From Minisyncoccota bacterium (GTDB lineage Bacteria > Patescibacteriota > Minisyncoccia > UBA6257 > JAGOQP01), in assembly GCA_041661795.1 (NCBI GenBank), contig JBAZTS010000001.1, forward strand, positions 124,161-188,160: a stretch of DNA of 64,000 bases, in the 5' to 3' direction. The notes beneath the pieces are model-generated. The model made no database searches, had not been told where the DNA came from, and worked only from the letters and a program-made list of their open reading frames with translations. Position numbers and translations under genes: made by a program. The first letter of the stretch is position 1. Each line of letters opens with the position of its first letter. Shown one piece after another: positions 2,860-49,720 of the stretch.

Positions 2860-2930
2860 GGGCGCTTAGGTAAGTGGTATACCTGCGGTCTCCAAAACCG
2901 CTGTCGGGGGTTCGATTCCCTCAGCGCCCG
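2860..2930 (+). tRNA. tRNA-Trp (anticodon CCA)
   Basis: Manual cloverleaf: acceptor GGGCGCT/AGCGCCC, anticodon stem GCGGT/ACCGC with loop CTCCAAA, T-arm GGGGGTTCGATTCCCTC. No encoded CCA. Confidence 0.85.
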
Positions 2931-2943
2931 CATTCTAAAAATC

Positions 2944-3459
2944 ATGAAAAAAGAAGCTCTAAACAGAATACTCATTGTTGGAGACGCTGGCAGGGGTAAG
3001 TCTTCGCTTGCTTCAAAAATTTCCACAAAATTAGGAATACAACATTATTCAACTGATGATTTTTATTACGAAGTAAAGTTTTCAAAATTACGAGACAGAC
3101 AAGAAAGTATTAATACTATCTCAAAAATCTTTCAAAATGAGAGATGGATTATTGAAGGTACTACGAGGCATTTAATTATACTTGGACTAGATTCTGCGGA
3201 TATAATTATTCACCTTAGATATAAAAACATACTAATTCAGTGGCTGGTTCTCATAAAAAGATATTTTGAGAGAAGTGGTAAAGTTATTGACAACATCGGG
3301 GGGTTATTAAAACTAATGAAGCATGTTCTATATAAAAAACATCATCTTGGATACAGAAAAGGTAAACTCACGCCAACTGAGATTATTGAACTCCATAAAC
3401 ATAAAGTAATTACACTTTCTTCTTTTAAAGAAATTGACAAGTTTATAAATTCTTTATAA
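2944..3459 (+). CDS. P-loop NTPase (topology-modulation/adenylate-kinase-like family)
   Basis: Walker A motif GDAGRGKSS near the N-terminus. 171 aa. Family assignment is by motif only. Confidence 0.55.
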   Translation: MKKEALNRILIVGDAGRGKSSLASKISTKLGIQHYSTDDFYYEVKFSKLRDRQESINTISKIFQNERWIIEGTTRHLIILGLDSADIIIHLRYKNILIQWLVLIKRYFERSGKVIDNIGGLLKLMKHVLYKKHHLGYRKGKLTPTEIIELHKHKVITLSSFKEIDKFINSL

Positions 3460-3620: not shown

Positions 3621-3781
3621 ATCTCAACATGCTTAGTGTGTTTCCTGCACCACTTGCAATGTTTGGAAAGTTCTAATTTTTTCTCGTTAGTTTTTTTGTT
3701 CTTACGAGTATAATAATTAATTCTTTTACAAACAGAACATTTAAGTTTTATTAAATTTTCCGAAAATTTTGACTTTGCCAT
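3611..3781 (-). CDS. rpmG: 50S ribosomal protein L33
   Basis: Manual translation gives MAKSKFSENLIKLKCSVCKRINYYTRKNKKTNEKKLELSKHCKWCRKHTKHVEIKK. It has the C-x2-C...C-x2-C zinc ribbon and the overall L33 pattern. Absent from the ORF track because it is under 60 aa. Confidence 0.8.
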   Translation of the reverse strand: MAKSKFSENLIKLKCSVCKRINYYTRKNKKTNEKKLELSKHCKWCRKHTKHVEIKK

Positions 3782-4177: not shown

Positions 4178-4537
4178 TTATTCTTCTTCGCTCTTTTCTT
4201 CTTTATTTTCAGAATGTATCTCGCTTATTATATTCTGACCGATTCCATTTTGTCCATCGTTTTTATCTTTGATGTTTTCAATATGTTTTCCAACAAAATT
4301 ATCCATTTTCATAAGAATTAGTTTTGACCTCCTTAAAATTCTTGCTAGAATACTATTAAACTTTTTATCAACCGCTCCCATCCATTTCGAACCCCCTATA
4401 AAAATAGTCAGCTTTGATTTATTTTCAGATCCATTGGTAAAAAAACTATTATCCACTACTGGAAGTTTTTTAGCCAACATATAAACCATAAGACCAAGGC
4501 AGATAAAGAAGATTATTTCAACAACAAAATAGAACAT
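4178..4537 (-). CDS. hypothetical small membrane protein (N-terminal TM helix, acidic C-terminus)
   Basis: 119-aa ORF lying between tsf and tRNA-Thr. No recognisable motif. Confidence 0.4.
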   Translation of the reverse strand: MFYFVVEIIFFICLGLMVYMLAKKLPVVDNSFFTNGSENKSKLTIFIGGSKWMGAVDKKFNSILARILRRSKLILMKMDNFVGKHIENIKDKNDGQNGIGQNIISEIHSENKEEKSEEE

Positions 4538-4545
4538 ACCGTTTA

Positions 4546-5874: not shown

Positions 5875-6567
5875 CTAAATACCTCTCCACTCTTCTATCT
5901 TTTTATGGTCTCCTGACAAAAGAACCTTAGGAACAGACCATTTTCGGCCCGAGGCCGATCCGCCTTGGGCGGACTTTCCATCGGGGCTAAAAACTTCTGG
6001 ACGAGTATAGGTTGGATAACTTCCCTTTAATTCTTCTAAGGATTCTTTTTTCCCAAGAACTCCAGGAATAAATCTGGAAACCGAATCAACTAAGACCATC
6101 GCCGGTATCTCGCCGCCAGAAAGAATAAAATCCCCTATTGATATTTCTTCATCGGCAATATGTTTGGCCACCCTTTCATCAACTCCTTCATATCTGCCAC
6201 AAATTAAAATTAAATTGTTATACTTAGACAATCTTTGAGCAATTTTATTATCAAACTTTTTACCTCTTGTTGAAAACAAAATCACTCTTATCCTAGTAGT
6301 AGAACTTCGTTCACTATGGGACTTCGCTTTGCTCGTTTTTGACTTTATATTTTCCACTGCTTTATATATTGGTCCAACTTTTAAAACCATCCCCGGTCCT
6401 CCCCCAAAAGGACTATCATCTATCTTTTTATGCTTGTCCTTAGCCCATTTTCTGATGTTATATGTTTTTATAGATATCAATTTGTTTTTCTGAGCGCGCC
6501 CTAAAATTGACGATTTAAAATAATCTTCAAAAACATCGGGAATAGCTGAAAGAATGTGAAAAATCAT
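5875..6567 (-). CDS. trmD: tRNA (guanine37-N1)-methyltransferase
   Basis: TrmD hallmarks: N-terminal MIFHILSAIPDVFEDYF and SPFGGGPGMVL. It also contains an in-frame GC-rich palindromic insert at 5945..5974 (see findings). Confidence 0.85.
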   Translation of the reverse strand: MIFHILSAIPDVFEDYFKSSILGRAQKNKLISIKTYNIRKWAKDKHKKIDDSPFGGGPGMVLKVGPIYKAVENIKSKTSKAKSHSERSSTTRIRVILFSTRGKKFDNKIAQRLSKYNNLILICGRYEGVDERVAKHIADEEISIGDFILSGGEIPAMVLVDSVSRFIPGVLGKKESLEELKGSYPTYTRPEVFSPDGKSAQGGSASGRKWSVPKVLLSGDHKKIEEWRGI

Positions 6568-6620: not shown

Positions 6621-6929
6621 TTACAAATTTTTCAAATCTTCAACTGTTTGATCAACCCTAGAAGAAGGTCCTGTCCCTCCCTCTGGCTCTAAAATTTTAA
6701 GATTGACGCGAGCGTTGTTTTTCATACCAACGATTCTCAAAAGAGAACGGATGGCTTTGGCTGTTGATCCCTGTCTTCCGACAATTTGTCCCATGTCGGC
6801 CTTATGAACTTTAAGGGTCAAAAGCACTCCCATTTCATCAATTTTTCTTTCTACTTCTACGTCGTTTGGATTGTCAACCAAAGATTTGACGAGAAAATCC
6901 AAGAATTCTTGATCTCTGAATGTTTCCAT
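6621..6929 (-). CDS. KH-domain RNA-binding protein (YlqC/UPF0109 family)
   Basis: GxxG KH signature (IVGRQGSTAKAIRSL). Sits in the conserved slot between rpsP and trmD. Confidence 0.7.
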   Translation of the reverse strand: METFRDQEFLDFLVKSLVDNPNDVEVERKIDEMGVLLTLKVHKADMGQIVGRQGSTAKAIRSLLRIVGMKNNARVNLKILEPEGGTGPSSRVDQTVEDLKNL

Positions 6930-6962
6930 GAATAACTTTCTTGCTTGCTATTTATCGACCTT

Positions 6963-7370
6963 TTAAACACTAACCTGTTCCGATGATTCTTGATTTTGTT
7001 CTGGAATAGAATTTTCTACCGGCTGTTCTGCCGGAATTGTCTCTTGGACGGGTTCGGCACTTTGATTTTCAGGAACGACAACTGATGCCTGTTCAATCGG
7101 TTTTTTGGATTTCTTATGCATAGGAATTTTGACTCCCTCTATAGCTCCGGCTGAAATCAAAATATTATGGATAGAACCGCTCGGTTGAGCTCCATTATCT
7201 ATCCATTTTTTTACCTTCTCCTTGGCAACAAGAAACTTATTAGTATGAGGATTATACCATCCCAGGTCTTCAATAAATTTACCTTTCAATTTGGACCCCT
7301 TTTGACTGACTACTATTCTGTAAGAAATTTGTTTTTTCTTGCCTATCGGTTTTAGTTTTATGGTTAACAT
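6963..7370 (-). CDS. rpsP: 30S ribosomal protein S16 with acidic/Pro-rich C-terminal extension
   Basis: N-terminus MLTIKLKPIGKKKQISYRIVV... is a typical S16 fold sequence. Confidence 0.85.
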   Translation of the reverse strand: MLTIKLKPIGKKKQISYRIVVSQKGSKLKGKFIEDLGWYNPHTNKFLVAKEKVKKWIDNGAQPSGSIHNILISAGAIEGVKIPMHKKSKKPIEQASVVVPENQSAEPVQETIPAEQPVENSIPEQNQESSEQVSV

Positions 7371-7405
7371 AATCTTTGGTATCCTAATATTAAATTAATC
7401 AAAAG

Positions 7406-9574
7406 TCAATTTTTATCCTCCAATTTCAATGATAATATTTTTGAAGCTCCCGACTCATCCATTGTTACGCCGTAAAGAACATCGGCTGATTCCATAATTA
7501 CTCTATTGTGGGTAACAATTATAAATTGACTGTGAGAAGAAAAGTTTTTTATTAAGTCGGAAAATCTTTTTGAATTCTTTTCATCCAAAGCCGAATCGGC
7601 TTCATCTAAAACCAAGAAAGGCGGAGGACTGACTGAGATTAAGGCAAATAAAACAGCCAAAGAGACCAAACTCTTCTCACCTCCGGAAAGCATTTCTAAG
7701 CTGGTTATTTTCTTCTGAGGGATAGAAAGGTCTATATCTATTCCGAAAGGAACTTCTTTTTCTTCTTCCGTTTCCTTCTCTAAAATTTCTACGCCATCCT
7801 CTATTTTTTCTTCGCTGATCTCTTTTTTAATGAGCTTCATCTTGGCATGACCCCCTCCAAACATAACCCTAAAGAAAGTATGAAATTCTTCATTGACCCG
7901 TAAGAAAGATTCTCTGAATTCACTGTTGATTTTATCGTTTAATTCGTTAATTGCCAAAGAAAGATTTTCTATGGCTCCCGATAAATCGTTTGATTCTTTG
8001 TTCAAAAAATTATAATGAGATTCAACTTCCTGGGCTTCGTTGACTATTGACTGGTCTATTTCTCCTATACTGGCTAATTCTCCTCTCAGACGGAGCATTT
8101 TTTTCTCTATAATTCCTATTTCTTCATCAGAAAAGGAATAATTATAAGACGGGCTAATAGCTATATCTTCAAATGTTTTAAAGTGTTTTCCAATTGAATG
8201 TATCTGATTTTTTATGTCTTCAAGGCGATAAGATATCTTTTCTTCCTCAAAAATTATCTTTTCCTTGTCTCGTTCAAAATTTTGGAGCCGATTCCTTGAA
8301 GATTCAAGATTTTCAAAAGCCGACCTGAACTTAGAATTAAACTCTTCTAATTGTTTTGACTGGGAAAACTCTTTTTCTTCAAGAAGGGATATTTCTTTTT
8401 CTATTTGGTCTATCTGTTTCTTTATCTCATCTCTTTTCTTCTCTACCGTTGAGATGTCGTGTTTTTGTCCGGAATCTTTATCCAAAAGACCATTTAATTC
8501 ATTTATAATTTTTTTAATAAATTGTCTTATTTCTTCTATGTCATTTTCTTCTAAAACAGAATTGAGCTTATTTTTTATATTGCTAATTCTTTTTTCTATT
8601 TCATCAAAAGAAGCCCTTTGACCGACTTGTTTTATAACAAATTCAATTTCCGCTTCAATCCTAAAGAATTCTTTTTCCAATAAAGATTTCTTTTCAAAAA
8701 GGCCCTTTTTTTCTTTTTGTCCAGAAGAAACATCTCCAGAGACAACTTGTTGGTCTTCTATTTTTTTTAACTCTTTTTCGGCCTGAGAAACTTCTAAAGA
8801 GGCCTCTTTTGTTTGATTGAGTAAACTTTCAAGAGGACTTTTAGCTTTTTCTTTTAAACCGATAAGATTTTTTATTTTGAAGGAAAAATATTTGTTTTCG
8901 AGATCTTCTAACTCCTTATCCACTTCAAATCTCTTTTCCCATCTGGAAGTTTGTTTTTTAAGCATTCTTAAACGCGGAGCTGCTTCTCCCATCATGGCGC
9001 TTATCTTTTCCAGATTTATCCTTGTATTTTTTAATTTTCTCTCCGCTTCATTCTTCTTAAGCTGATATTCTTTCAGACCCAAGATTTCCTGAACCATCAT
9101 CATTCTTTCGGTCGGAGTAGCTTTAACAAAAATATCTCCTGCCCCTTGTCCAATAATAGTTAAACCCTTAGTGCCCAATTTTATTTTGGAGAAAAAATCT
9201 ATGATGTCTTTTAAGCGAACTTCAGAATCGTTAATAAAATATTTGGAATCGGAGTTCCTGTTAATGCTTCTGGAAACCACCACTTCTTTAAAATCAACCG
9301 GAATGTTTCCTTTAGAATTATCAAAAACTAAGCTCACTTGAGCCATAGACATTTTCTGTTTTTTAGCCGTTCCGGAAAAAATCAAATCCTCAATTTTTGC
9401 TCCTCTAAGATTCTTCGCCTCTCTTTCGCCTAAAAGCCACCTGATGGCATCAATGACGTTGGATTTTCCGGATCCGTTAGGTCCGACAATAGAAACTATG
9501 CCTGCAGGAAACTCAAAGACAGTTTTTGAGGCAAATGACTTAAAACCGTTAATTTCAAGACGCTTTAGAAACAT
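7406..9574 (-). CDS. smc: SMC-family chromosome segregation ATPase (short, apparently hinge-less, 722 aa)
   Basis: N-terminal Walker A head (LEINGFKSFASKT...GPNGSGKSNVIDAI). C-terminal signature LSGGEKSLVSLAVLFAL plus Walker B LVLDEADSALD. Long coiled coil in between. Synteny rnc-smc matches Bacillus. Confidence 0.7.
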   Translation of the reverse strand: MFLKRLEINGFKSFASKTVFEFPAGIVSIVGPNGSGKSNVIDAIRWLLGEREAKNLRGAKIEDLIFSGTAKKQKMSMAQVSLVFDNSKGNIPVDFKEVVVSRSINRNSDSKYFINDSEVRLKDIIDFFSKIKLGTKGLTIIGQGAGDIFVKATPTERMMMVQEILGLKEYQLKKNEAERKLKNTRINLEKISAMMGEAAPRLRMLKKQTSRWEKRFEVDKELEDLENKYFSFKIKNLIGLKEKAKSPLESLLNQTKEASLEVSQAEKELKKIEDQQVVSGDVSSGQKEKKGLFEKKSLLEKEFFRIEAEIEFVIKQVGQRASFDEIEKRISNIKNKLNSVLEENDIEEIRQFIKKIINELNGLLDKDSGQKHDISTVEKKRDEIKKQIDQIEKEISLLEEKEFSQSKQLEEFNSKFRSAFENLESSRNRLQNFERDKEKIIFEEEKISYRLEDIKNQIHSIGKHFKTFEDIAISPSYNYSFSDEEIGIIEKKMLRLRGELASIGEIDQSIVNEAQEVESHYNFLNKESNDLSGAIENLSLAINELNDKINSEFRESFLRVNEEFHTFFRVMFGGGHAKMKLIKKEISEEKIEDGVEILEKETEEEKEVPFGIDIDLSIPQKKITSLEMLSGGEKSLVSLAVLFALISVSPPPFLVLDEADSALDEKNSKRFSDLIKNFSSHSQFIIVTHNRVIMESADVLYGVTMDESGASKILSLKLEDKN

Positions 9575-10247
9575 AAGAAAGGGCTTTTTTGGCAGCTTCT
9601 ACTTCGGCCTCTTGTTTTGAAAAACCTTCTCCTTGGGCCAACTCTTCTTCTCCTATAAAAACTCCTACTTTAAAAATTTTTTTGTGGTCAGGACCGGATT
9701 CTTCTAAAACTTGATAATTGGGAGTGATTTTATATTTTTCTTGGGCAATTTCTTGGAAAAAACTTTTGGCATCTCTATATGAACCTTTTTCTATAACTTC
9801 TGAAGCTTTGGAAAAGACGTATTTTTCTATAAATCGAGCTGACGTTTCGTAGCCACTATCTAAATATATGGCTCCAATAAGAGCTTCAAAAGCATTGGCT
9901 AAAATAACATCTCTGGCTTTGCCTATGTCTTTGGATTCGCCTTTGGACATTGAAAGAAAATCTCCCAAATTTATTCCTTTGCCCGCTTCTGATAAAAAAA
10001 TGTAATTAACCAAAGCTGCTCGAACACTGGTAAGATACCCCTCATCTTTGTCGGGATAAGAAGCAAAAAGTTTCTCGGTAATAATCATTTCCAAAACAGC
10101 GTCACCTAAAAATTCAAGACGCTCATTGTGAGAAATTCCCCAAGAAGGATTTTCGTTAAGATAAGATCTGTGAGTTAAAGCTTCTTTTAATAATTCCTCG
10201 TTTTTGAAGCTAACGTCAATTTTTTCCTGAAATTCAGATAAATTCAT
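9555..10247 (-). CDS. rnc: ribonuclease III
   Basis: RNase III signature ERLEFLGDAVLE. C-terminal dsRBD. Uses a TGA stop. Confidence 0.85.
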   Translation of the reverse strand: MNLSEFQEKIDVSFKNEELLKEALTHRSYLNENPSWGISHNERLEFLGDAVLEMIITEKLFASYPDKDEGYLTSVRAALVNYIFLSEAGKGINLGDFLSMSKGESKDIGKARDVILANAFEALIGAIYLDSGYETSARFIEKYVFSKASEVIEKGSYRDAKSFFQEIAQEKYKITPNYQVLEESGPDHKKIFKVGVFIGEEELAQGEGFSKQEAEVEAAKKALSYVSKAS

Positions 10248-21544: not shown

Positions 21545-23539
21545 TTAAATGTCAAGATTCTTAACCATAGCCGCTCTGCTCTGAATAAAGTGTTTTCTGG
21601 GTTCAACTTTTTCACCCATAAGAATATCAAAGAGCCGATCCGCCTGTTGAGCGTCTTCAATTCTAATTTGTTTTACTGTCCTTGTAGCCGGATCCATGGT
21701 CGTTTCCCAAAGTTGCGGAGGATTCATTTCTCCAAGACCTTTGTAGCGCTGAATATTAACTCCCTTAACAATTTCGGACACTTCTTCTTCACTTCCGATG
21801 TCTACATTTTCATTCTTCTGGTCTTTAATTTTACCGAATTCAGAAATAAGTTTTTCTTTTTCCGCATCAGAATAAGCATATTTGAACTCGCGACCCTTTT
21901 GTATTCTGTAAAGTGGCGGTTGAGCAATATATAAATATCCTCTTTCTATTATTTCCCTAAAATATCTGTAGAAAAGAGTTAAAAGTAAAGTTCTGATATG
22001 AGCTCCGTCAACATCAGCATCGGTCATAATAATTATTTTATGATAACGAATTTTATCAGGATTAAAATCATTGCCAATAGCGGTACCCAAAGCAATAACC
22101 AAAGATTTTATTTCATTGTTGGCAAGCATTTTATCCAAACGAGATTTTTCAACGTTAAGAATCTTTCCACGCAAAGGCAGTATAGCTTGGAATTTTCTGT
22201 CTCTTCCCTGTTTTCCAGAACCACCGGCGCTGTCTCCCTCAACAATAAACAATTCGGATTGAGCAGGATCTTTTGACGTACAATCGGCAAGTTTTCCGGG
22301 TAAGGCCAAACCTTCCAAGGGGCCCTTCCTTAAAACCGTTTCTTTGGCGGCTTTAGCGGCTTTTCTGGCTTTAACGGACAACAAACATTTAGAAATAATT
22401 AACCTTCCTTCATCTGAATATTTTTGTAAAAATTCTTTTAACGCCTCTGAAACTACCGATTCAACGGCGGTTCTAGCCGGAGGATTGCCAAGACGAGCTT
22501 TGGTTTGCCCTTCAAATTGGGGTTCTCTTATTTTTATAGAAACTATAGCCACAATACCTTCTCTGACATCGTCTCCGGTAAAATTATCTTCTTTTTCTTT
22601 AATATAAGTGTTTTCCCTGGCATAGTCGTTTAAAGCTCTTGTCAAAGCGGAACGAAAACCGGTCAAATGCATTCCCCCATCAGTTGTAAAAATATTATTA
22701 GCAAAACTCAATTCTTGAATTTCAGTATCGTTATTATAAACAAAAGCCGCTTCCACTTGGATTCCGTCATATTCTTTATTAACGTAAAAAGGAGTTTCTT
22801 GAACAGAATCTCCAAATTCATTTAGGTAATTAAGAAAAGAGATTATCCCTCCCTCAAAACAAAAAGAATAATACTGAATAAATTCTTCTCTCTCGTCAAT
22901 AATTTCAATACGAACTCCTTTTACCAAAAAGGCCTGCTGTCTTAGGTGATCAATTATTTTTTTTCTATCAAACTCGCCTTTGGAAAGAATTTCATCATCC
23001 GGTTGAAAAGTAACTTTAGTACCGGTATTTTTTGAAGCGCCAACCTTTTTAACTTTATATTGAGGAACCCCTTTTTTATATTCCTGAACATAAGAACCGC
23101 CATCTCTCTCAACTTCAACCTTCATCCATTTGGAAAGAGCGTTAACAACAGAAACACCAACTCCGTGAAGTCCCCCAGCAACTTTGTATGATTCGCCGCC
23201 AAATTTTCCTCCAGCATGAAGAGTACAAAGAACGGTTTCTAAAGCCGATCTTTTCGTCTGTGGGTGGATATCAACTGGAATACCTCTCCCATCGTCAGTA
23301 ACAGAAACTTTATTATCCTTAAGAAGTTCTACCCGAACATTCTTAGCGTGTCCGGCCATAGCTTCGTCTATAGAGTTATCAACAACCTCCCAAACCAAAT
23401 GATGAAGACCATCGGTTCCGGTAGAACCAATGTACATTCCCGGTCTTTTTCTGACCGGCTCTAATCCTTCAAGAACATATATATCTTTGGCGCTGTAAGA
23501 AGGACTATTTTCCTTATTTTTTTCCTCTTTTTTAGACAT
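21545..23539 (-). CDS. gyrB: DNA gyrase subunit B (or topoisomerase IV ParE; compact 664-aa form)
   Basis: GHKL ATPase motifs (HHLVWEVVDNSIDEAMAG, GLHGVGVSVVNALS). TOPRIM EGDSAGGS. C-terminal gyrB tail. Confidence 0.85.
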   Translation of the reverse strand: MSKKEEKNKENSPSYSAKDIYVLEGLEPVRKRPGMYIGSTGTDGLHHLVWEVVDNSIDEAMAGHAKNVRVELLKDNKVSVTDDGRGIPVDIHPQTKRSALETVLCTLHAGGKFGGESYKVAGGLHGVGVSVVNALSKWMKVEVERDGGSYVQEYKKGVPQYKVKKVGASKNTGTKVTFQPDDEILSKGEFDRKKIIDHLRQQAFLVKGVRIEIIDEREEFIQYYSFCFEGGIISFLNYLNEFGDSVQETPFYVNKEYDGIQVEAAFVYNNDTEIQELSFANNIFTTDGGMHLTGFRSALTRALNDYARENTYIKEKEDNFTGDDVREGIVAIVSIKIREPQFEGQTKARLGNPPARTAVESVVSEALKEFLQKYSDEGRLIISKCLLSVKARKAAKAAKETVLRKGPLEGLALPGKLADCTSKDPAQSELFIVEGDSAGGSGKQGRDRKFQAILPLRGKILNVEKSRLDKMLANNEIKSLVIALGTAIGNDFNPDKIRYHKIIIMTDADVDGAHIRTLLLTLFYRYFREIIERGYLYIAQPPLYRIQKGREFKYAYSDAEKEKLISEFGKIKDQKNENVDIGSEEEVSEIVKGVNIQRYKGLGEMNPPQLWETTMDPATRTVKQIRIEDAQQADRLFDILMGEKVEPRKHFIQSRAAMVKNLDI

Positions 23540-24487: not shown

Positions 24488-24564
24488 TGGGGTGAGCAAC
24501 GGGGATTGAACCCGTGACCTCCTGGGCCACAACCAGGCGCTCTACCAGCTGAGCTATGCCCACC
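24488..24564 (-). tRNA. tRNA-His (anticodon GTG) with the extra 5' G(-1) and encoded CCA
   Basis: Reverse complement gives GGTGGGCATAGCTCAGCTGGTAGAGCGCCTGGTTGTGGCCCAGGAGGTCACGGGTTCAATCCCCGTTGCTCACCCCA. Confidence 0.85.
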
Positions 24565-24569
24565 ATACT

Positions 24570-25061
24570 TTAACGAACATTCATTTTTATGAGTATACGC
24601 CGCACATATCCCCAGTCAAGATTTAATTGCTTCCCTATCTCCCTATAGGAAGCACCAGAAGTTCTCATCTCTAGGGCTTTTGCTTTTTTATGTTCCATTA
24701 CAGATATTTTAACATTCCTCTTTTTGGCGTATTTACTCAATTCTGGAATTACTTTTTTAGCAATAGCATTTTTGACTATAAGATAATCGAAAATTCTTTT
24801 CAAAAAATAAAGCACATCGTCTTGTTTAGAAATATAATAAATCCAACTATCTTTCCAGTGAGATTTTCTTTTTGTGATTTTACAGACATAACCAACTTTA
24901 CTGAATTTAACTATGCCATCAAGAACCTCCTGATTTGTTTGAGATATGGCAATTCGGTATCCCTTGCCGTTGTGGCTTATACATCCCTCTCCATCAAAAA
25001 ATCCTGCTATATATTCCCATTTCATTAGGTCAATTATATCACTAATAAGTGGATACATCAA
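24570..25061 (-). mobile_element. freestanding LAGLIDADG homing endonuclease with C-terminal HTH
   Basis: Motif YIAGFFDGEGCI (the LAGLIDADG/DGEG core) near the N-terminus. C-terminal sigma-70 region-4-like HTH (ASYREIGKQLNLDWGYVRRIL). Its stop codon sits 6 nt from the tRNA-His 5' end. Confidence 0.75.
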
Positions 25062-25128
25062 TCATTACCGACTATACAAGAACCACATATTGATTTTATC
25101 ACAATAAAGCAATAAAATAGCAGATGAT

Positions 25129-25200
25129 GTTCCCATAGTTCAACGGATAGAACGACTCCCTTCTAAGGAGTAGATCCGGGTTCGATTCCTGGTGGGAATA
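25129..25200 (+). tRNA. tRNA-Arg (anticodon TCT)
   Basis: Acceptor GTTCCCA/TGGGAAT. Anticodon stem ACTCC/GGAGT with loop CTTCTAA. T-arm CCGGGTTCGATTCCTGG. Confidence 0.85.
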
Positions 25201-25258
25201 CATATAAGTTAATATAAAATTGCCTTATATTAGTTTTTTTGATAATTTTAAAAATGAT

Positions 25259-25330
25259 GCCGCGGTAGCTCAGTGGTAGAGCTTTCGCCTGAAGAGCGAA
25301 GAGTCGTCAGTTCGATTCTGACCCGCGGCA
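25259..25330 (+). tRNA. tRNA-Phe (anticodon GAA)
   Basis: Acceptor GCCGCGG/CCGCGGC. Anticodon loop CTGAAGA. T-arm GTCAGTTCGATTCTGAC. Confidence 0.85.
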
Positions 25331-25354
25331 CTGTTAATTAAAAAAACTACAAAT

Positions 25355-25426
25355 CGGGCCGTAGTGTAATGGTAGCACGAATGCTTTGGGAGTATTTAGT
25401 CCGAGTTCAAATCTCGGCGGCCCGAC
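25355..25426 (+). tRNA. tRNA-Pro (anticodon TGG)
   Basis: Acceptor CGGGCCG/CGGCCCG. Anticodon loop TTTGGGA. T-arm CCGAGTTCAAATCTCGG. Confidence 0.8.
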
Positions 25427-25580
25427 AAAAATAAAGACCCTTTTTTGGGTTTTTATTTTTGTTGTGACCCAAGAGATTTGAATAGAGAATGTGAAATTCT
25501 CGCTTGCCCGCCCGAAGCTTTAGCGAAGGAGGGGCGGCCCGACAAAAATAAAGACCCTTTTTTGGGTTTTTATTTTTGTT
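25413..25580 (+). repeat. ~48-bp direct duplication of the tRNA-Pro 3' end plus its terminator (25413..25460 and 25531..25580), separated by a ~70-bp spacer
   Basis: GGCGGCCCGACAAAAATAAAGACCCTTTTTTGGGTTTTTATTTTTGTTGTG occurs twice, verbatim. Each copy contains the AAAGACCC-TTTTTT-GGGTTTTT terminator hairpin. Confidence 0.7.
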
Positions 25581-25600
25581 GTGGTTGTAAAATTGAATAT

Positions 25601-26086
25601 CTATTTAAGTTTATGATTCTTTCCAAAACAGCTCCAAGGTAAAGTCAACTCAATTTCGGAAAAATTATTAATAATCCATTGCACGTACGTATTACAATTA
25701 GGACCGGTTAAAAAATATTTATTGGTATAAGGATATAAAATTGGAGATTTTTCTATAAATTCAATCATTTTTTCTGCGTTTTTACCTTCAATTTTGGCGA
25801 ATAATTTACTCTCCCAATAATATCCTCGGAGGAAAGGAACAACTCTGATTCCCTGGAATGGAGGGAGAAAATCTTTGTATAAATTTCCCCAATTTTGTTT
25901 GTTTTTAATTTTTCTAAAAAGTATCTCCCATCTTGATACAGAACCTTTCTTATTTATTACAAACCAAGAATGAGCCCCAAAACTAAATGGCAGTGTTGCC
26001 GGGCACATAAACAAAAACACCTGGTAATTATCCGGCTCTATTAATTTTCCAAAATTATCTTTGTCCATAGAAATCCTTTTGAGCAA
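25601..26086 (-). CDS. hypothetical protein, possibly of the LRAT/NlpC-P60 papain-like superfamily
   Basis: 161 aa. GPNCNTYVQW resembles the LRAT-family NCEHF catalytic-Cys motif, with an upstream His (GAHSWFV). Weak, motif-only inference. Confidence 0.35.
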   Translation of the reverse strand: MLKRISMDKDNFGKLIEPDNYQVFLFMCPATLPFSFGAHSWFVINKKGSVSRWEILFRKIKNKQNWGNLYKDFLPPFQGIRVVPFLRGYYWESKLFAKIEGKNAEKMIEFIEKSPILYPYTNKYFLTGPNCNTYVQWIINNFSEIELTLPWSCFGKNHKLK

Positions 26087-26422: not shown

Positions 26423-26497
26423 ATGTTTATAAATTAATAATAAATTATTTGTTGACGGACTTTGTCCGCCGTAGCTCGTTGCTTCAACGAGCGAAGG

Positions 26498-26584
26498 CGG
26501 AGGGTACAGGATTTGAACCTGTGATCCCGTTTCCGGGAAACCGCATTTCGAATGCGGCGCAATAAACCACTATGCGAACCCTCC
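26498..26584 (-). tRNA. tRNA-Ser (anticodon CGA), long variable arm
   Basis: Reverse complement gives GGAGGGTTCGCATAGTGGTTTATTGCGCCGCATTCGAAATGCGGTTTCCCGGAAACGGGATCACAGGTTCAAATCCTGTACCCTCCG. Anticodon loop TTCGAAA. Confidence 0.8.
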
Positions 26585-26593
26585 CTGTGTTTT

Positions 26594-26872
26594 TTATCTT
26601 AAGTCATCTTCTCTCAAAACGGCAAGGATTTCATCTTTTATATCAACCCTGGTTCCGTCTTTATGAAGAACACGTTTCCATTTGGGTATATAAACAATTC
26701 CGTTTTTAAGATGAACTCTAAAAAATTCTATATTTCTTCCATCCCCTTCTTTGTCATCGTCTCCATAATGAAGACGATCATCGCGTATCTCCTCGACAAT
26801 TCTCATGATTTCTTCTTTTGACAATTTTTCCGAAGCGTGTTCCCTGCCTGGTTCTATCTCGTGATTATTCAT
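26594..26872 (-). CDS. hypothetical acidic protein
   Basis: The track ORF 26594..26938 overlaps tRNA-Arg(CCT) at its 5' end. The likely start is the internal Met (MNNHEIEPGREHA...). Confidence 0.35.
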   Translation of the reverse strand: MNNHEIEPGREHASEKLSKEEIMRIVEEIRDDRLHYGDDDKEGDGRNIEFFRVHLKNGIVYIPKWKRVLHKDGTRVDIKDEILAVLREDDLR

Positions 26873-27035: not shown

Positions 27036-27106
27036 GGGCCTATAGTATAGCGGTAGAACACCTCCATGGCATGGAGGGGGTCGGGGTTCGACTCCCCGTA
27101 GGTCCA
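27036..27106 (+). tRNA. tRNA-Ala (anticodon GGC) with the G3:U70 identity pair
   Basis: Acceptor GGGCCTA/TAGGTCC gives G3:U70. Anticodon stem CCTCC/GGAGG with loop ATGGCAT. T-arm GGGGTTCGACTCCCC. Confidence 0.8.
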
Positions 27107-27265
27107 CAATAAAATATTTAATCAGAGATTAGATATTTTATTTGGGCCACAGGAATCGAATAGAGGTGGGTCGGAGGACGCTTAGTCCTTCGTGTAGGAA
27201 ATTATTCAAAACCGAGGATTTTGAAAGAGTCCGCCCTGGGCGGACGATGTGAGATTCCCCGTAGG
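27107..27265 (+). repeat. structured spacer ending in a second copy of the tRNA-Ala 3' terminus (TCCCCGTAGGTCCAC at 27248..27262); contains a GTCCGCC-CTG-GGCGGAC hairpin
   Basis: A 15-bp direct repeat of the tRNA-Ala 3' end, seen in sequence. The embedded GC-rich hairpin at 27224..27242 resembles the dispersed CCGCC/GGCGG element. Confidence 0.5.
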
Positions 27266-27311
27266 TCCACCCAAAGAAACATTGTCATTATAAATCTTAA
27301 AAGAAAATGAT

Positions 27312-40812: not shown

Positions 40813-40984
40813 AACATTATCGCTCATAGTTCATTTATTATACAAAAATCCACAATAAAAACAACTGGCTGGTTGTTAGTTAAGAGTTGATAATTATTTT
40901 GAAAACTTTTTTAGTTGCCCCAGCCGAAACTTTAGGATCCTCGGCCAACTCCATTCCGCCAAAGGCGGATCGATCAATAATCTT

Positions 40985-42530
<1,546 letters not shown>

Positions 42531-48448: not shown

Positions 48449-49720
48449 TTATATACTAATATATCCTTTAGTGATATTTTCTTTAGTCATTTCTTCCATT
48501 TTCCCCTCACCAAAATAGGAAGAAAATATTTTATTCCATAGTGACTCCTGATGATGATAAAGATACTTAATCATTTCAACCTTTTTAACTAAAGCCATTG
48601 AGGTATCTATAAGATTAAAGCTGACTAGAACTTCTATCCCGGTATCAGTAGAAAAATAATCGCCTATCCAATTCAGCCCCGCCCAGAAAGCAAAATCTCC
48701 ATCCAAGCCATGTTTTTTTGCCAACTCAACAATATTCTTTTCTGCTTTCTCCCAATGCAAGGCCTCCGGGTTAACGTGAGGATAAAAAAGACGCCAGTCG
48801 TTTTCGTCGTCTTTGGCTAAATATCTTTGAGTAACCATCCAATCTCCTTCCTTTATCAGTTCCTTAGAATCAATTACGTCGCCTCTTAAAAGAGAGGAAA
48901 AATCTTCAAAAAAGTTATGATTTATTATCTTTTTTCCGCCCGAGGCGGATCCGCCTATGGCGGAGAATACATCCGAATAAAAAGATATTTCATTAACATA
49001 ATGGAATAAGAGAGCCACGGTTCTTATGAGTTCTCCGGGGATATCCAAGGATATAGGAATGACAAATATTATTCCTAATTCTTTTAAGTGGCTAATGTTG
49101 TGATATTTTTTTTCAACAAATTTCTGAGCCAACTCTTTCCATCTGTCGCTGATAGAAATGATTTCTATTGGCCTTATCTCAAAATCAGCGCTGGACAAAT
49201 CTTGATAATGCCTGATAAAAAACATATTTATCCATTCAGCTCCTTCTACAAATCTAAGGGCGCTGGCTACTTCCCTCCAGTCCTCTTTTTTGAGCATCTC
49301 TGAAACGCTTTGATAACCAAGTGCGGAAAGAATCTTTTTAGGCGGTTCTTTTTCCAATATTTCTATAAACTTGTCTTTTTTTATAAAAAATCCTTCTTTT
49401 TTACCAACCACCAGATTAACCGCCTCAATTATTTTTTGGCATCCACCAACTTCAAAATGACATGGATTTCCTAAAACCGAATTGAGAATTTTATCGTCCT
49501 TGTTTATTTTTCCTATAAGAGCGTCAAATATTTGTTTGGCGCTGGAATCTTTTTTGAGACCAAGAAAGCTTAGTTTTTCCAGCATTATTGCCTCATTGTC
49601 AGAGCAAATTTCATCAAGCATTCTGGCTTTATTGGTAATTTTGCCAAGCTTATCCTGAACGTTTTTTATAACATCTTTATCGGTTCTTAAAATTCTTGCA
49701 ATTTTTTCGTAGGATTCCAT
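48449..49720 (-). CDS. hypothetical protein (423 aa) sandwiched between two pilin-LamG genes
   Basis: No motif recognised. Carries the longest copy of the GC-rich palindromic element (48936..48963), encoding AIGGSASGGK. Confidence 0.5.
   Translation of the reverse strand: MESYEKIARILRTDKDVIKNVQDKLGKITNKARMLDEICSDNEAIMLEKLSFLGLKKDSSAKQIFDALIGKINKDDKILNSVLGNPCHFEVGGCQKIIEAVNLVVGKKEGFFIKKDKFIEILEKEPPKKILSALGYQSVSEMLKKEDWREVASALRFVEGAEWINMFFIRHYQDLSSADFEIRPIEIISISDRWKELAQKFVEKKYHNISHLKELGIIFVIPISLDIPGELIRTVALLFHYVNEISFYSDVFSAIGGSASGGKKIINHNFFEDFSSLLRGDVIDSKELIKEGDWMVTQRYLAKDDENDWRLFYPHVNPEALHWEKAEKNIVELAKKHGLDGDFAFWAGLNWIGDYFSTDTGIEVLVSFNLIDTSMALVKKVEMIKYLYHHQESLWNKIFSSYFGEGKMEEMTKENITKGYISI

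Follow-up and report, generated by a model that had tools for sequence, protein, structure and literature searches.

The 64,000-nt stretch analysed here (the window), from a Candidatus Paceibacterota metagenome-assembled genome of the candidate phyla radiation (CPR, or Patescibacteria), carries beside its tRNA-His gene an open reading frame (ORF) that is probably a free-standing, self-regulated LAGLIDADG homing-endonuclease cassette, seated at the 5' flank of the single tRNA-His gene. The cassette covers about 530 bp and is made up of inverted TGTGG half-sites, about 35 bp from each other, around a -35 element, an extended -10 element near the ATG, the gene of a 151-aa protein, and then tRNA-His. 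Its components are known (an I-CreI-like nuclease, a helix-turn-helix (HTH) domain, autorepression and intronless homing at tRNA genes). Their combination appears undescribed: a single-domain LAGLIDADG protein bearing an outrigger HTH, a symmetric putative operator, a promoter that probably yields a leaderless mRNA, and an exceptionless association with tRNA-His throughout the radiation. The parts of the cassette were located in the window as follows:

24488-24563, minus strand: tRNA-His(GTG), with an encoded G-1 at 24564 (ARAGORN; Rfam tRNA, 66.2 bits; reading of the sequence)
24570-25025, minus strand: free-standing LAGLIDADG-HTH gene, 151 aa, ATG start at 25025
24592-24619, minus strand: internal promoter-like site (TTGACT-16-TATACT) at the ORF's 3' end, 28 nt ahead of tRNA-His
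25033-25061, minus strand: predicted endonuclease promoter, with -35 TTGATG (25061-25056), 17 nt, TG-extended -10 TATAAT (25038-25033), 7 nt and ATG
25045-25090, minus strand: putative operator, with inverted half-sites ATATGTGG (GTGG at 25086-25083) and CCACTTAT (CCAC at 25052-25049), 30 nt apart, around the -35 element

The endonuclease gene ends in a TAA stop (24572-24570), followed by five bases (24569-24565), G-1 (24564) and position +1 of tRNA-His (24563), which bears out the same-strand adjacency described in an earlier note on this DNA. The tRNA-His gene was found uninterrupted, as that note had also read it, with G-1, C73 and CCA all encoded.

The link to tRNA-His was shared by the whole protein family. 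A search over 5.8 billion proteins returned about 70 protein clusters, nearly all of 147-161 aa and 42-62% identical to the window protein, carrying the source names LAGLIDADG, 'intein-encoded endonuclease-like' or 'WhiA'. When one genome per species (185,579 species) was scanned with the two most conserved peptides, close relatives were obtained at 37 loci, whose hosts were, by record title, Wolfe-, Nealson-, Staskawicz-, Taga-, Buchanan-, Falkow-, Kerfeld- and Uhrbacteria as well as unclassified Patescibacteria. ARAGORN placed a tRNA-His(GTG) gene directly downstream on the same strand in 36 of these 37 loci (loci are designated by L numbers), and in the remaining one (L031) an aberrant tRNA-His (4466-4540) that the program missed was visible by eye. 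Metagenomes yielded 22 further loci with an identical arrangement, four or five of which duplicated genome loci. Linkage to tRNA-His was thus found in all 60 loci (the window, 37 genome and 22 metagenome loci; about 56 distinct). The gap between the stop codon and tRNA-His was usually 2-27 nt, and in about eight loci ORF and tRNA overlapped by 10-23 nt. Among 100 distant LAGLIDADG relatives from the same scans, just 3 lay within 300 nt of any tRNA. Because of this difference (60/60 against 3/100), the linkage defines the family rather than being an accident of one genome, and adjacency to tRNA-His is its conserved property.

In most family loci the endonuclease gene was also preceded, at 60-200 nt and on the same strand, by a tRNA gene, usually tRNA-Arg(TCT); the upstream tRNA block of the window was inverted relative to this layout. 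The window tRNA-His had A and T as leader bases -3 and -2, a pair shared by nearly all family loci and by alleles lacking the homing endonuclease gene (HEG-less alleles).

The earlier note had left two origins for the ORF, a free-standing gene or the remnant of an excised intron or element. As a remnant, it would descend from an element, such as a group I intron, that had interrupted tRNA-His or a tRNA next to it and was later excised or degraded. The usual location of CPR LAGLIDADG genes in rRNA insertions or introns (PMC11270868) and the tRNA gene fragments found near some family loci (L016, L183, L033) could be cited for such an origin. However, tRNA-His and the upstream tRNAs were intact in all family loci. 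No intron-like RNA was detected at the locus by Rfam at either gathering or relaxed thresholds, the conserved promoter and operator and the leaderless start form the anatomy of an autonomous gene, and the same compact free-standing layout of promoter/operator, ORF and tRNA-His recurred in all 60 members. Since no intron RNA family was detected, the flanking tRNAs were intact and the gene had a promoter of its own, the endonuclease gene is free-standing and not an intron remnant; a remnant of an intron or intein is extremely improbable.

The ORF encoded a genuine LAGLIDADG protein with a C-terminal HTH, as the earlier note had proposed and as the Pfam profile search confirmed (LAGLIDADG_3, E=1.3e-9). 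A longer reading (24570-25061) starts from TTG, while the ATG at 25025 is the annotated and family-consistent start. The Pfam match to LAGLIDADG_WhiA was weaker (E=2e-6, below LAGLIDADG_3), several weak Pfam HTH families matched residues 124-159 of the TTG-started reading, and the WhiA HTH family gave no Pfam match in the protein. The identical protein at NCBI is named 'LAGLIDADG family homing endonuclease [Candidatus Paceibacterota bacterium]'. The AlphaFold model of the 151-aa protein (pLDDT 95.3) displayed an alpha-beta-beta-alpha-beta-beta-alpha LAGLIDADG core at residues 3-81 (H3-13, E14-18, E23-29, H32-42, E46-50, E60-65, H68-81), followed by a 37-residue helix (86-122) and a two-helix HTH (127-147). 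The core matched I-MsoI and I-CreI in a profile search of the PDB, and the best Foldseek matches were I-CvuI, I-Vdi141I and I-CreI, with a probability of 1.00 to I-CvuI and I-CreI. About 112 residues could be superposed on I-CreI-type enzymes at 3.5-4.5 A with 23-26% identity.

Profile alignment equated E13 with D20 of I-CreI, Q29 with Q47 and K85 with K98. Both the motif and core fold of LAGLIDADG enzymes and, by sequence, the acidic residue at the motif end and the active-site Gln and Lys were found. In the family alignment (35 sequences), E13 and Q29 were invariant and K85 was at least 90% conserved; the invariant positions comprised W3, Y5, GFxDGEG, Q29, K52-R53, W57-K58, W61, R121, D137 and R142. 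Pairwise dN/dS (the ratio of nonsynonymous to synonymous divergence) ranged from 0.05 to 0.13 in the family, indicating purifying selection. Because the catalytic equivalents were invariant or nearly so and dN/dS was this low, the family protein looks like an active, selected enzyme. Residence in a self-splicing intron or intein, which is typical but not obligatory for LAGLIDADG enzymes, was not observed. The protein also differed from the WhiA type, in which two tandem domains without catalytic residues precede a C-terminal HTH, by having a single domain with the catalytic equivalents kept.

Alignment of the 70 nt upstream of the family start codons revealed a common module, nTGTGGnTA, about 22 nt with a -35-like TTGnnn, TAnCCACAn, 4-6 nt, TATAAT (often TG-extended), 6-9 nt and ATG. 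The pattern GTG[GA]-N24-36-[TC]CAC at the correct distance from the ATG was found in 47 of 60 loci, compared with 0.46 of 60 in shuffled upstream regions. Inner half-site spacing was 31 nt in 26 of 44 loci and ranged from 29 to 32 nt, which puts the half-site centres about three helical turns apart. The promoter scan of the window gene gave a match at 10 of 12 positions plus the TG. As only 6-9 nt separated the -10 element from the ATG and no room for a Shine-Dalgarno sequence was left between them in family loci, the endonuclease mRNA is probably leaderless.

Outside the cassette, the only other occurrence of the operator pattern in the 64 kb was a chance match within the 16S gene. Complementarity of the two arms was confined to the (T)GTG(G/A) core, with outer positions at chance level; an RNA stem or hairpin was rejected on this ground, and the limited complementarity argues for paired protein half-sites instead. 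The half-sites varied with the protein, GTGAC half-sites being found in 10 of 14 arms of members with a D[RH]GY[IVL]RR HTH and GTGG half-sites in 70 of 74 arms of members with a D[WF]G[YHQ]ARR HTH (Fisher p=2e-7, uncorrected, the loci being phylogenetically non-independent). Together, the putative operator and its covariation with the HTH suggest autoregulation. A resemblance of the operator to the tRNA-His gene itself (anticodon TGTGG and acceptor CCAC, likewise separated by 31 nt) was judged a coincidence, because many linked tRNA-His genes lacked the 3' CCAC and proteins with GTGAC operators still adjoined TGTGG anticodons. At one locus (L033, 3950-3982), a 33-nt copy of a tRNA-Arg 3' end stood in the operator's place, 18 nt before the endonuclease start.

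The promoter-like site near the 3' end of the ORF may serve as a separate tRNA-His promoter. Its form TTGACT-16-TATAYT was common to the closest family members (L010, L011 and L012), and such internal sites were counted in 16 of 55 loci against 5 of 55 control windows. This is weak and non-independent evidence, because the site overlaps conserved codons.

A protein that binds an operator over its own promoter could also be a domesticated regulator, i.e., a WhiA-like DNA-binding factor governing both its own promoter and the tRNA-His transcribed with it, passed on mainly by vertical descent and often lost. The overlap of operator and promoter, the covariation of protein and half-site, the strong purifying selection and the weak Pfam match to the LAGLIDADG domain of WhiA are in agreement with such a role, as is the absolute linkage to tRNA-His over deep divergence. 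Co-transcription of the ORF with tRNA-His is almost certain, because they are 2-27 nt apart or overlap. On the other hand, the equivalents of the I-CreI catalytic residues were invariant, and no second operator was found in the 64 kb, the chance 16S match aside. A domesticated regulator is judged unlikely, also in view of the distribution and history of the gene.

The gene displayed the signature of a selfish element, with a fixed site, a patchy distribution, empty sites, degenerate copies and horizontal spread. Its genome matches were scattered over two CPR classes, and occurrence in just 37 of 185,579 species representatives speaks against a domesticated regulator, as do the presence of pseudogenes and of close relatives lacking the gene at the same site. 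In the pseudogenes (L044, L046 and L048), ORFs ended at 37-75 codons while similarity ran on past the break. An empty site was seen in L090, where a bestrophin-like gene 79% identical to that of the window was followed by tRNA-His, as in the window, without an endonuclease gene, and FtsH followed in place of the latter. Likewise, the order RpiB, tRNA-Arg(TCT), cassette, tRNA-His of L016 and L017 was found again in L177 and L180 as RpiB, tRNA-Arg, tRNA-His without an endonuclease gene, with 76 or 124 nt between the tRNAs. RpiB of L177 and L180 was 67-68% identical to that of L016, compared with 59% for RpiB of L017.

Divergence of the gene and of its flanks differed. Between L016 and L017, the endonuclease was 86% identical and three flanking proteins 35%, 57% and 59%; between L014 and L022, synonymous divergence (dS) was 0.45 for the endonuclease, while that of its neighbours was 1.04 and saturated. 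Histories of the two tRNA genes were also discordant. The tRNA-Arg genes of L180 and L177 were 100% identical, that of L016 matched L180 at 97%, and L017 stood at 81% identity to each of the three. For tRNA-His, L180 was 100% identical to L017 and only 64% to L177, while L016 and L017 shared 95%. The homology of L177 with L180 ended exactly at the 3' end of tRNA-Arg. The window tRNA-His was 91% identical to a Wolfebacteria allele (L010) and 64% identical to that of the HEG-less relative L090. Both the dS below that of the flanks and the discordance of tRNA-Arg and tRNA-His are at odds with a mainly vertical regulator. This disagreement of the two tRNA histories is most simply explained by horizontal movement of the gene between lineages, at least once together with tRNA-His. 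Co-transfer of tRNA-His is shown by one well-resolved case (L016/L017/L180) and suggested for the window, but not as a general rule, because the family-wide Mantel test was not significant.

Several points weigh against a mobile, self-regulated nuclease. Thirteen of the 60 loci had no recognisable operator, and an operator-bound LAGLIDADG-HTH protein also resembles a domesticated regulator. The greater conservation of the gene over its flanks could partly reflect constraint and not recent transfer, and the dS contrast rests on short genes. Distances of endonuclease and tRNA-His were not correlated family-wide (Mantel r=0.06, not significant). L177 and L180 differed in everything beyond tRNA-Arg, and a larger rearrangement instead of homing could explain their tRNA-His alleles. 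Finally, no shared immunity signature was seen in the linked tRNA-His alleles, which were very diverse; a common signature was rejected on this absence and on the Mantel result.

Two further candidates for traces of the insertion were set aside. An 'ATG' just before tRNA-His was considered as cassette boundary but was also present in the HEG-less L090, L177 and L180; A-3, T-2 and G-1 before tRNA-His were near-invariant, including in HEG-less alleles, and are probably the transcript start and RNase P context and not part of the element. The spacer of L180 was unconvincing as a decayed cassette, with just an 8-nt match to the left half-site. Orphan tRNA fragments were noted at two more loci, a 5' fragment of tRNA-Arg upstream of the intact gene in L016 (about 3699-3724) and a T-arm/acceptor fragment within about 100 nt downstream of tRNA-Arg 128-202 in L183 (minus strand).

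Under the homing-endonuclease cassette proposed here, the protein would form a homodimer whose two HTH domains, held off the core by the long helices, would read the two half-sites. Binding of the HTH domains would repress the cassette's own promoter and keep the nuclease level low. The nuclease core would cut tRNA-His loci without cassette, and repair from the cassette-bearing copy would install the cassette, at least sometimes together with the donor tRNA-His allele, while copies would decay and disappear over time. The cleavage target may be the junction between promoter and tRNA in naive alleles, a site that insertion of the cassette would interrupt, or may lie within or beyond tRNA-His, in which case immunity would come from the linked allele. 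More speculatively, and as a doubtful extension, the mobile unit could be the endonuclease plus tRNA-His, a gene-drive-like cassette that replaces the host's only tRNA-His and then controls part of its transcription from an autoregulated leaderless promoter. The same tentative extension would make the family an active homodimeric form near the ancestor of WhiA-type regulators and, together with GIY-YIG genes and ORF-less mini-inserts, would make tRNA genes, and not just rRNA genes, a major selfish-nuclease battleground in CPR bacteria.

Compared with known systems, the family shares with I-CreI, I-MsoI, I-CvuI and I-Vdi141I the single LAGLIDADG domain, the GFxDG(D/E)G motif and the equivalents of Q47 and K98. 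I-CreI-type enzymes are encoded within group I introns of rRNA genes or within archaeal introns and have no additional DNA-binding domain, whereas the tRNA-His family is free-standing, has a 37-residue helix and an HTH, possesses its own promoter and putative operator, and lies beside a tRNA gene. Free-standing LAGLIDADG homing endonucleases are uncommon in bacteria. LAGLIDADG enzymes of CPR bacteria such as I-ShaI are single-domain proteins of about 19 kDa that are encoded in rRNA insertions, act as homodimers and cut their own insertion site (PMC11270868). They belong to the same radiation and have the single domain of the family; their genes are sited in 16S and 23S insertions. The statement of the earlier note that LAGLIDADG genes normally lie within rRNA or tRNA introns is therefore supported for rRNA insertions, tRNA-linked copies not being mentioned in that study (PMC11270868). 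The CPR LAGLIDADG literature found dealt with rRNA insertions only (PMC11270868), and a literature search for LAGLIDADG or homing endonucleases together with tRNA-His returned mitochondrial and phage papers only.

Intronless homing and autorepression have precedents in phages. Free-standing endonucleases of the seg and mob types are associated with 'intronless homing' (PMC2330249, PMC2988022), and SegB of T4, located in the phage tRNA cluster, drives inheritance of its region by cutting the HEG-less allele (PMC2330249). Like the family, SegB is a free-standing gene in a tRNA cluster that is inherited with adjacent tRNA genes; it differs in being a phage GIY-YIG enzyme, whereas the family is a LAGLIDADG-HTH type of cellular genomes, tied to one tRNA across a radiation. 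By analogy, SegB-like behaviour would explain the co-transfer of tRNA-His. I-TevI binds an operator overlapping its own promoter and thereby limits its own expression (reviewed in PMC2988022), which parallels the self-repression proposed for the family protein. I-TevI, however, is of the GIY-YIG type, works as a monomer and has an operator resembling its homing site, while the putative family operator pairs two symmetric half-sites, presumably for a dimer.

WhiA resembles the family in having a LAGLIDADG scaffold followed by a C-terminal HTH, and a family dimer would resemble its two-domain layout. In WhiA, a single chain holds two catalytically dead domains in tandem, and the protein occurs in nearly all Gram-positive bacteria; its lack of the LAGLIDADG catalytic residues was reportedly described by Kaiser et al. 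in 2009. The family differs by its one domain, its retained catalytic residues and its patchy distribution.

Some observations on tRNA-linked nucleases stand beside the family. In L028, L039, L042 and L043, the endonuclease-linked tRNA-His genes had GAG... acceptor stems and atypical T-loops (GGGGTGCAAATCCCC, G replacing the expected T55). Two distant LAGLIDADG relatives of about 40% identity over the core started 49-106 nt downstream of other tRNA genes, one after tRNA-Asp 843-916 (L120, ORF from 1014) and one after tRNA-Tyr 2325-2417 (L125, ORF 2461-2901); they hint at sister lineages tied to other tRNA genes. A LOOT RNA (Rfam RF03000, 52.8 bits, above the gathering score) was found in L011 (1384-1487, plus strand), about 145 nt downstream of the linked tRNA-His.

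On the other side of the operator, the window harbored three more tRNA genes that, in accordance with the earlier note, were divergent from tRNA-His; ARAGORN and Rfam concurred on the tRNA genes of the locus:

25129-25201, plus strand: tRNA-Arg(TCT) (ARAGORN, Rfam)
25259-25331, plus strand: tRNA-Phe(GAA) (ARAGORN, Rfam)
25355-25425/6, plus strand: tRNA-Pro(TGG) (ARAGORN, Rfam)
25129-25426, plus strand: divergent tRNA operon Arg-Phe-Pro, with a promoter-like site at 25090-25118

The 3' end of tRNA-Pro was duplicated together with its terminator. The earlier note had described a verbatim 48-bp repeat around a 70-bp spacer; the duplication held, with corrected lengths of 51 nt for the exact direct repeat (25416-25466 and 25533-25583) and 66 nt for the spacer. 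The repeat consisted of the last 10 nt of tRNA-Pro and the whole near-palindromic hairpin terminator, and no shuffled version of the window yielded a 51-nt match. A comparable structure was found at tRNA-Ala(GGC):

25416-25466, plus strand: repeat copy 1, last 10 nt of tRNA-Pro and a bidirectional hairpin terminator (predicted by folding)
25467-25532, plus strand: spacer, 66 nt, with a GC-rich 3' half and the block CCAAGAGATTTGAATAGAG at 25469-25487
25533-25583, plus strand: repeat copy 2, displaced or duplicated tRNA-Pro 3' end and terminator
27036-27270, plus strand: tRNA-Ala(GGC) scar, with the tRNA at 27036-27107, a 145-nt insert and then a copy of the tRNA 3' end

Read on the minus strand, repeat copy 2 can terminate the convergent DUF3750 gene (25601-26086). 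A 65-aa ORF (25445-25642) spanning the spacer and both terminator copies was taken as spurious. Neither the rest of the window nor 180 other loci, IMG/VR or JGI metagenome contigs contained a match to the spacer. Only noise came from Rfam at relaxed thresholds, which discarded the spacer as a known RNA, and an in-register comparison by eye with the 5' part of tRNA-Pro gave about 20% identity, as random sequence would, which discarded a degenerate tRNA.

The copy of the tRNA-Ala 3' end comprised an exact stretch of 15 nt, TCCCCGTAGGTCCAC, at 27256-27270, and was 78% identical over 32 nt (27239-27270). The same tRNA-Ala(GGC) duplication was present in a different genome (L012). A 19-nt block was common to the tRNA-Pro and tRNA-Ala spacers (25469-25487 and 27147-27165); it does not constitute independent support, because the search pattern was built from those two copies. 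In a survey of 169 tRNAs from the window and the CPR loci, using the last 14 nt with at most one mismatch within 600 nt, copies of the tRNA 3' end were found downstream of 8 tRNAs and upstream of none. tRNA-Pro was a ninth case outside the survey hits, missed because just 10 nt of its repeat overlap the tRNA. The duplicated segments mostly started in the T-loop or T-stem and ended at the tRNA 3' end, and the inserts were 66-280 nt long (493 nt in L010) and mostly GC-rich. A single well-defined family of mini-inserts was rejected, as only the short motifs GAGCGAAGCGAAT, CCGGAGCATGT and CCAACTGCTTRGC were common to them, too weak for a model. Downstream of tRNA-Gly(TCC) 3156-3228 in L039, a 278-nt insert (about 2878-3155, minus strand) encoding a GIY-YIG nuclease domain (Pfam E=1.1e-10) was followed by a 12-nt copy of the tRNA-Gly 3' end.

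Scars of this type recur at tRNA genes in these genomes, and the tRNA-Pro duplication most likely arose when a small insertion brought in a new tRNA 3' end and pushed the original one aside. In this process, small elements, at least some of them nuclease-borne, would enter the 3' part of a tRNA gene and substitute a 3' end of their own, the old one being left behind downstream of the insert. Endonuclease ORFs of the fungal mitochondrial atp6 and cox genes are said, in work by Paquin et al. from 1994, to bring a replacement 3' end in the same way, with the displaced end left downstream. The structures at tRNA-Pro, tRNA-Ala and the L039 tRNA-Gly are similar in consisting of an intact gene, an insert and an orphan 3' end; unlike the fungal cases, the two inserts of the window carry no ORF, and the tRNA-Pro repeat runs through the terminator. 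The 'integration or repair scar' of the earlier note is accordingly plausible, given the like structures at 8 of 169 other tRNAs and the GIY-YIG insert of L039, although no integrase, parent element or source of the spacer was found. Nor was any mechanistic link found between the tRNA-Pro scar and the LAGLIDADG gene.

A direct repeat that starts 10 nt inside the tRNA 3' end is also what classical attachment (att) sites in tRNA genes look like, and the 51-nt repeat could possibly be an attL/attR remnant of an integrase-type element at the 3' end of tRNA-Pro, of which the interior was lost and 66 nt were left. Like repeats followed tRNA-Ala and seven other tRNAs, the spacer was GC-rich against a genome of 37% GC, and a 3.2-kb insertion at a tRNA-His 3' end in L180 was associated with a short repeat. 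That insertion (L180 343-3588, compared with L017 4526-4585) lay exactly at the tRNA-His 3' end, contained two genes of unassigned function (531 and 391 aa), parted tRNA-His from its original terminator and was flanked by a short repeat of the tRNA end (ACCCCA). For the window, however, no integrase or larger relative of the spacer was detected in the loci, viral contigs or metagenome contigs, and only 66 nt lay between the repeats where an integrase or element interior would be expected. The repeat also extended 41 nt past the tRNA through the terminator, which is longer than a typical att core, and the inserts were tiny, the sole coding one specifying a GIY-YIG nuclease and not an integrase. 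An att remnant is a serious rival of the small insertion with a replacement 3' end, though a less likely one.

Short exact hairpin repeats are prone to mis-assembly, and a mis-joined or expanded repeat would be a trivial source of the 51-nt duplication. A 13.5-kb contig (JBAYLG010000015.1, GCA_041664185.1) was 100% identical to the window over 5,599 bp, duplication included, maybe from the same reads. An assembly artefact is very unlikely, because this second NCBI contig, with a different end point, has the same structure; in addition, the spacer is unique sequence and not a collapsed repeat, and analogous structures occurred at other tRNAs and in other genomes.

Further features of the window and of related loci were also noted. 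A 92-aa ORF (26594-26872, minus strand), placed between two tRNAs, stopped 9 nt before tRNA-Ser(CGA) (26496-26584), the same layout as that of the LAGLIDADG gene at tRNA-His; it had no family match in Pfam, PHROGs or NCBIfam. In a Wolfebacteria locus (L002), an 85-aa GIY-YIG gene (149-406) lay 20 nt before tRNA-Ser(CGA), and the gyrB gene near the cassette (6759-9995) carried an intein (1,078 aa, Pfam Intein_splicing). The window gyrB (21545-23539, 664 aa) had no intein, and the window's 16S rRNA gene (40984-42530, minus strand) had no insertion (1,547 nt for a 1,533-nt model). No 23S or 5S genes were detected anywhere in the 64-kb window, which points to unlinked rRNA genes. Short GC-rich palindromes (TCCGCC-N3/4-GGCGGA) at 5934-5989, 27226-27245 and 48935-48971, in a genome of 37% GC, may represent a small repeat family.

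The tRNA-His family would offer a compact natural example of self-regulation by a selfish nuclease, with a conserved, essential single-copy gene as both landing pad and hitch-hiker. Its TGTGG and TGTGAC half-sites, matched with DWGYARR and DRGYIRR helices, constitute testable recognition pairs, and the association of an I-CreI core with two outrigger HTH domains over about 40 bp is a possible scaffold for long-site nucleases. Duplications of tRNA 3' ends are frequent scars that annotators of CPR genomes should expect. For the biology of these bacteria, the family suggests a route for the horizontal movement of tRNA alleles in minimal genomes.

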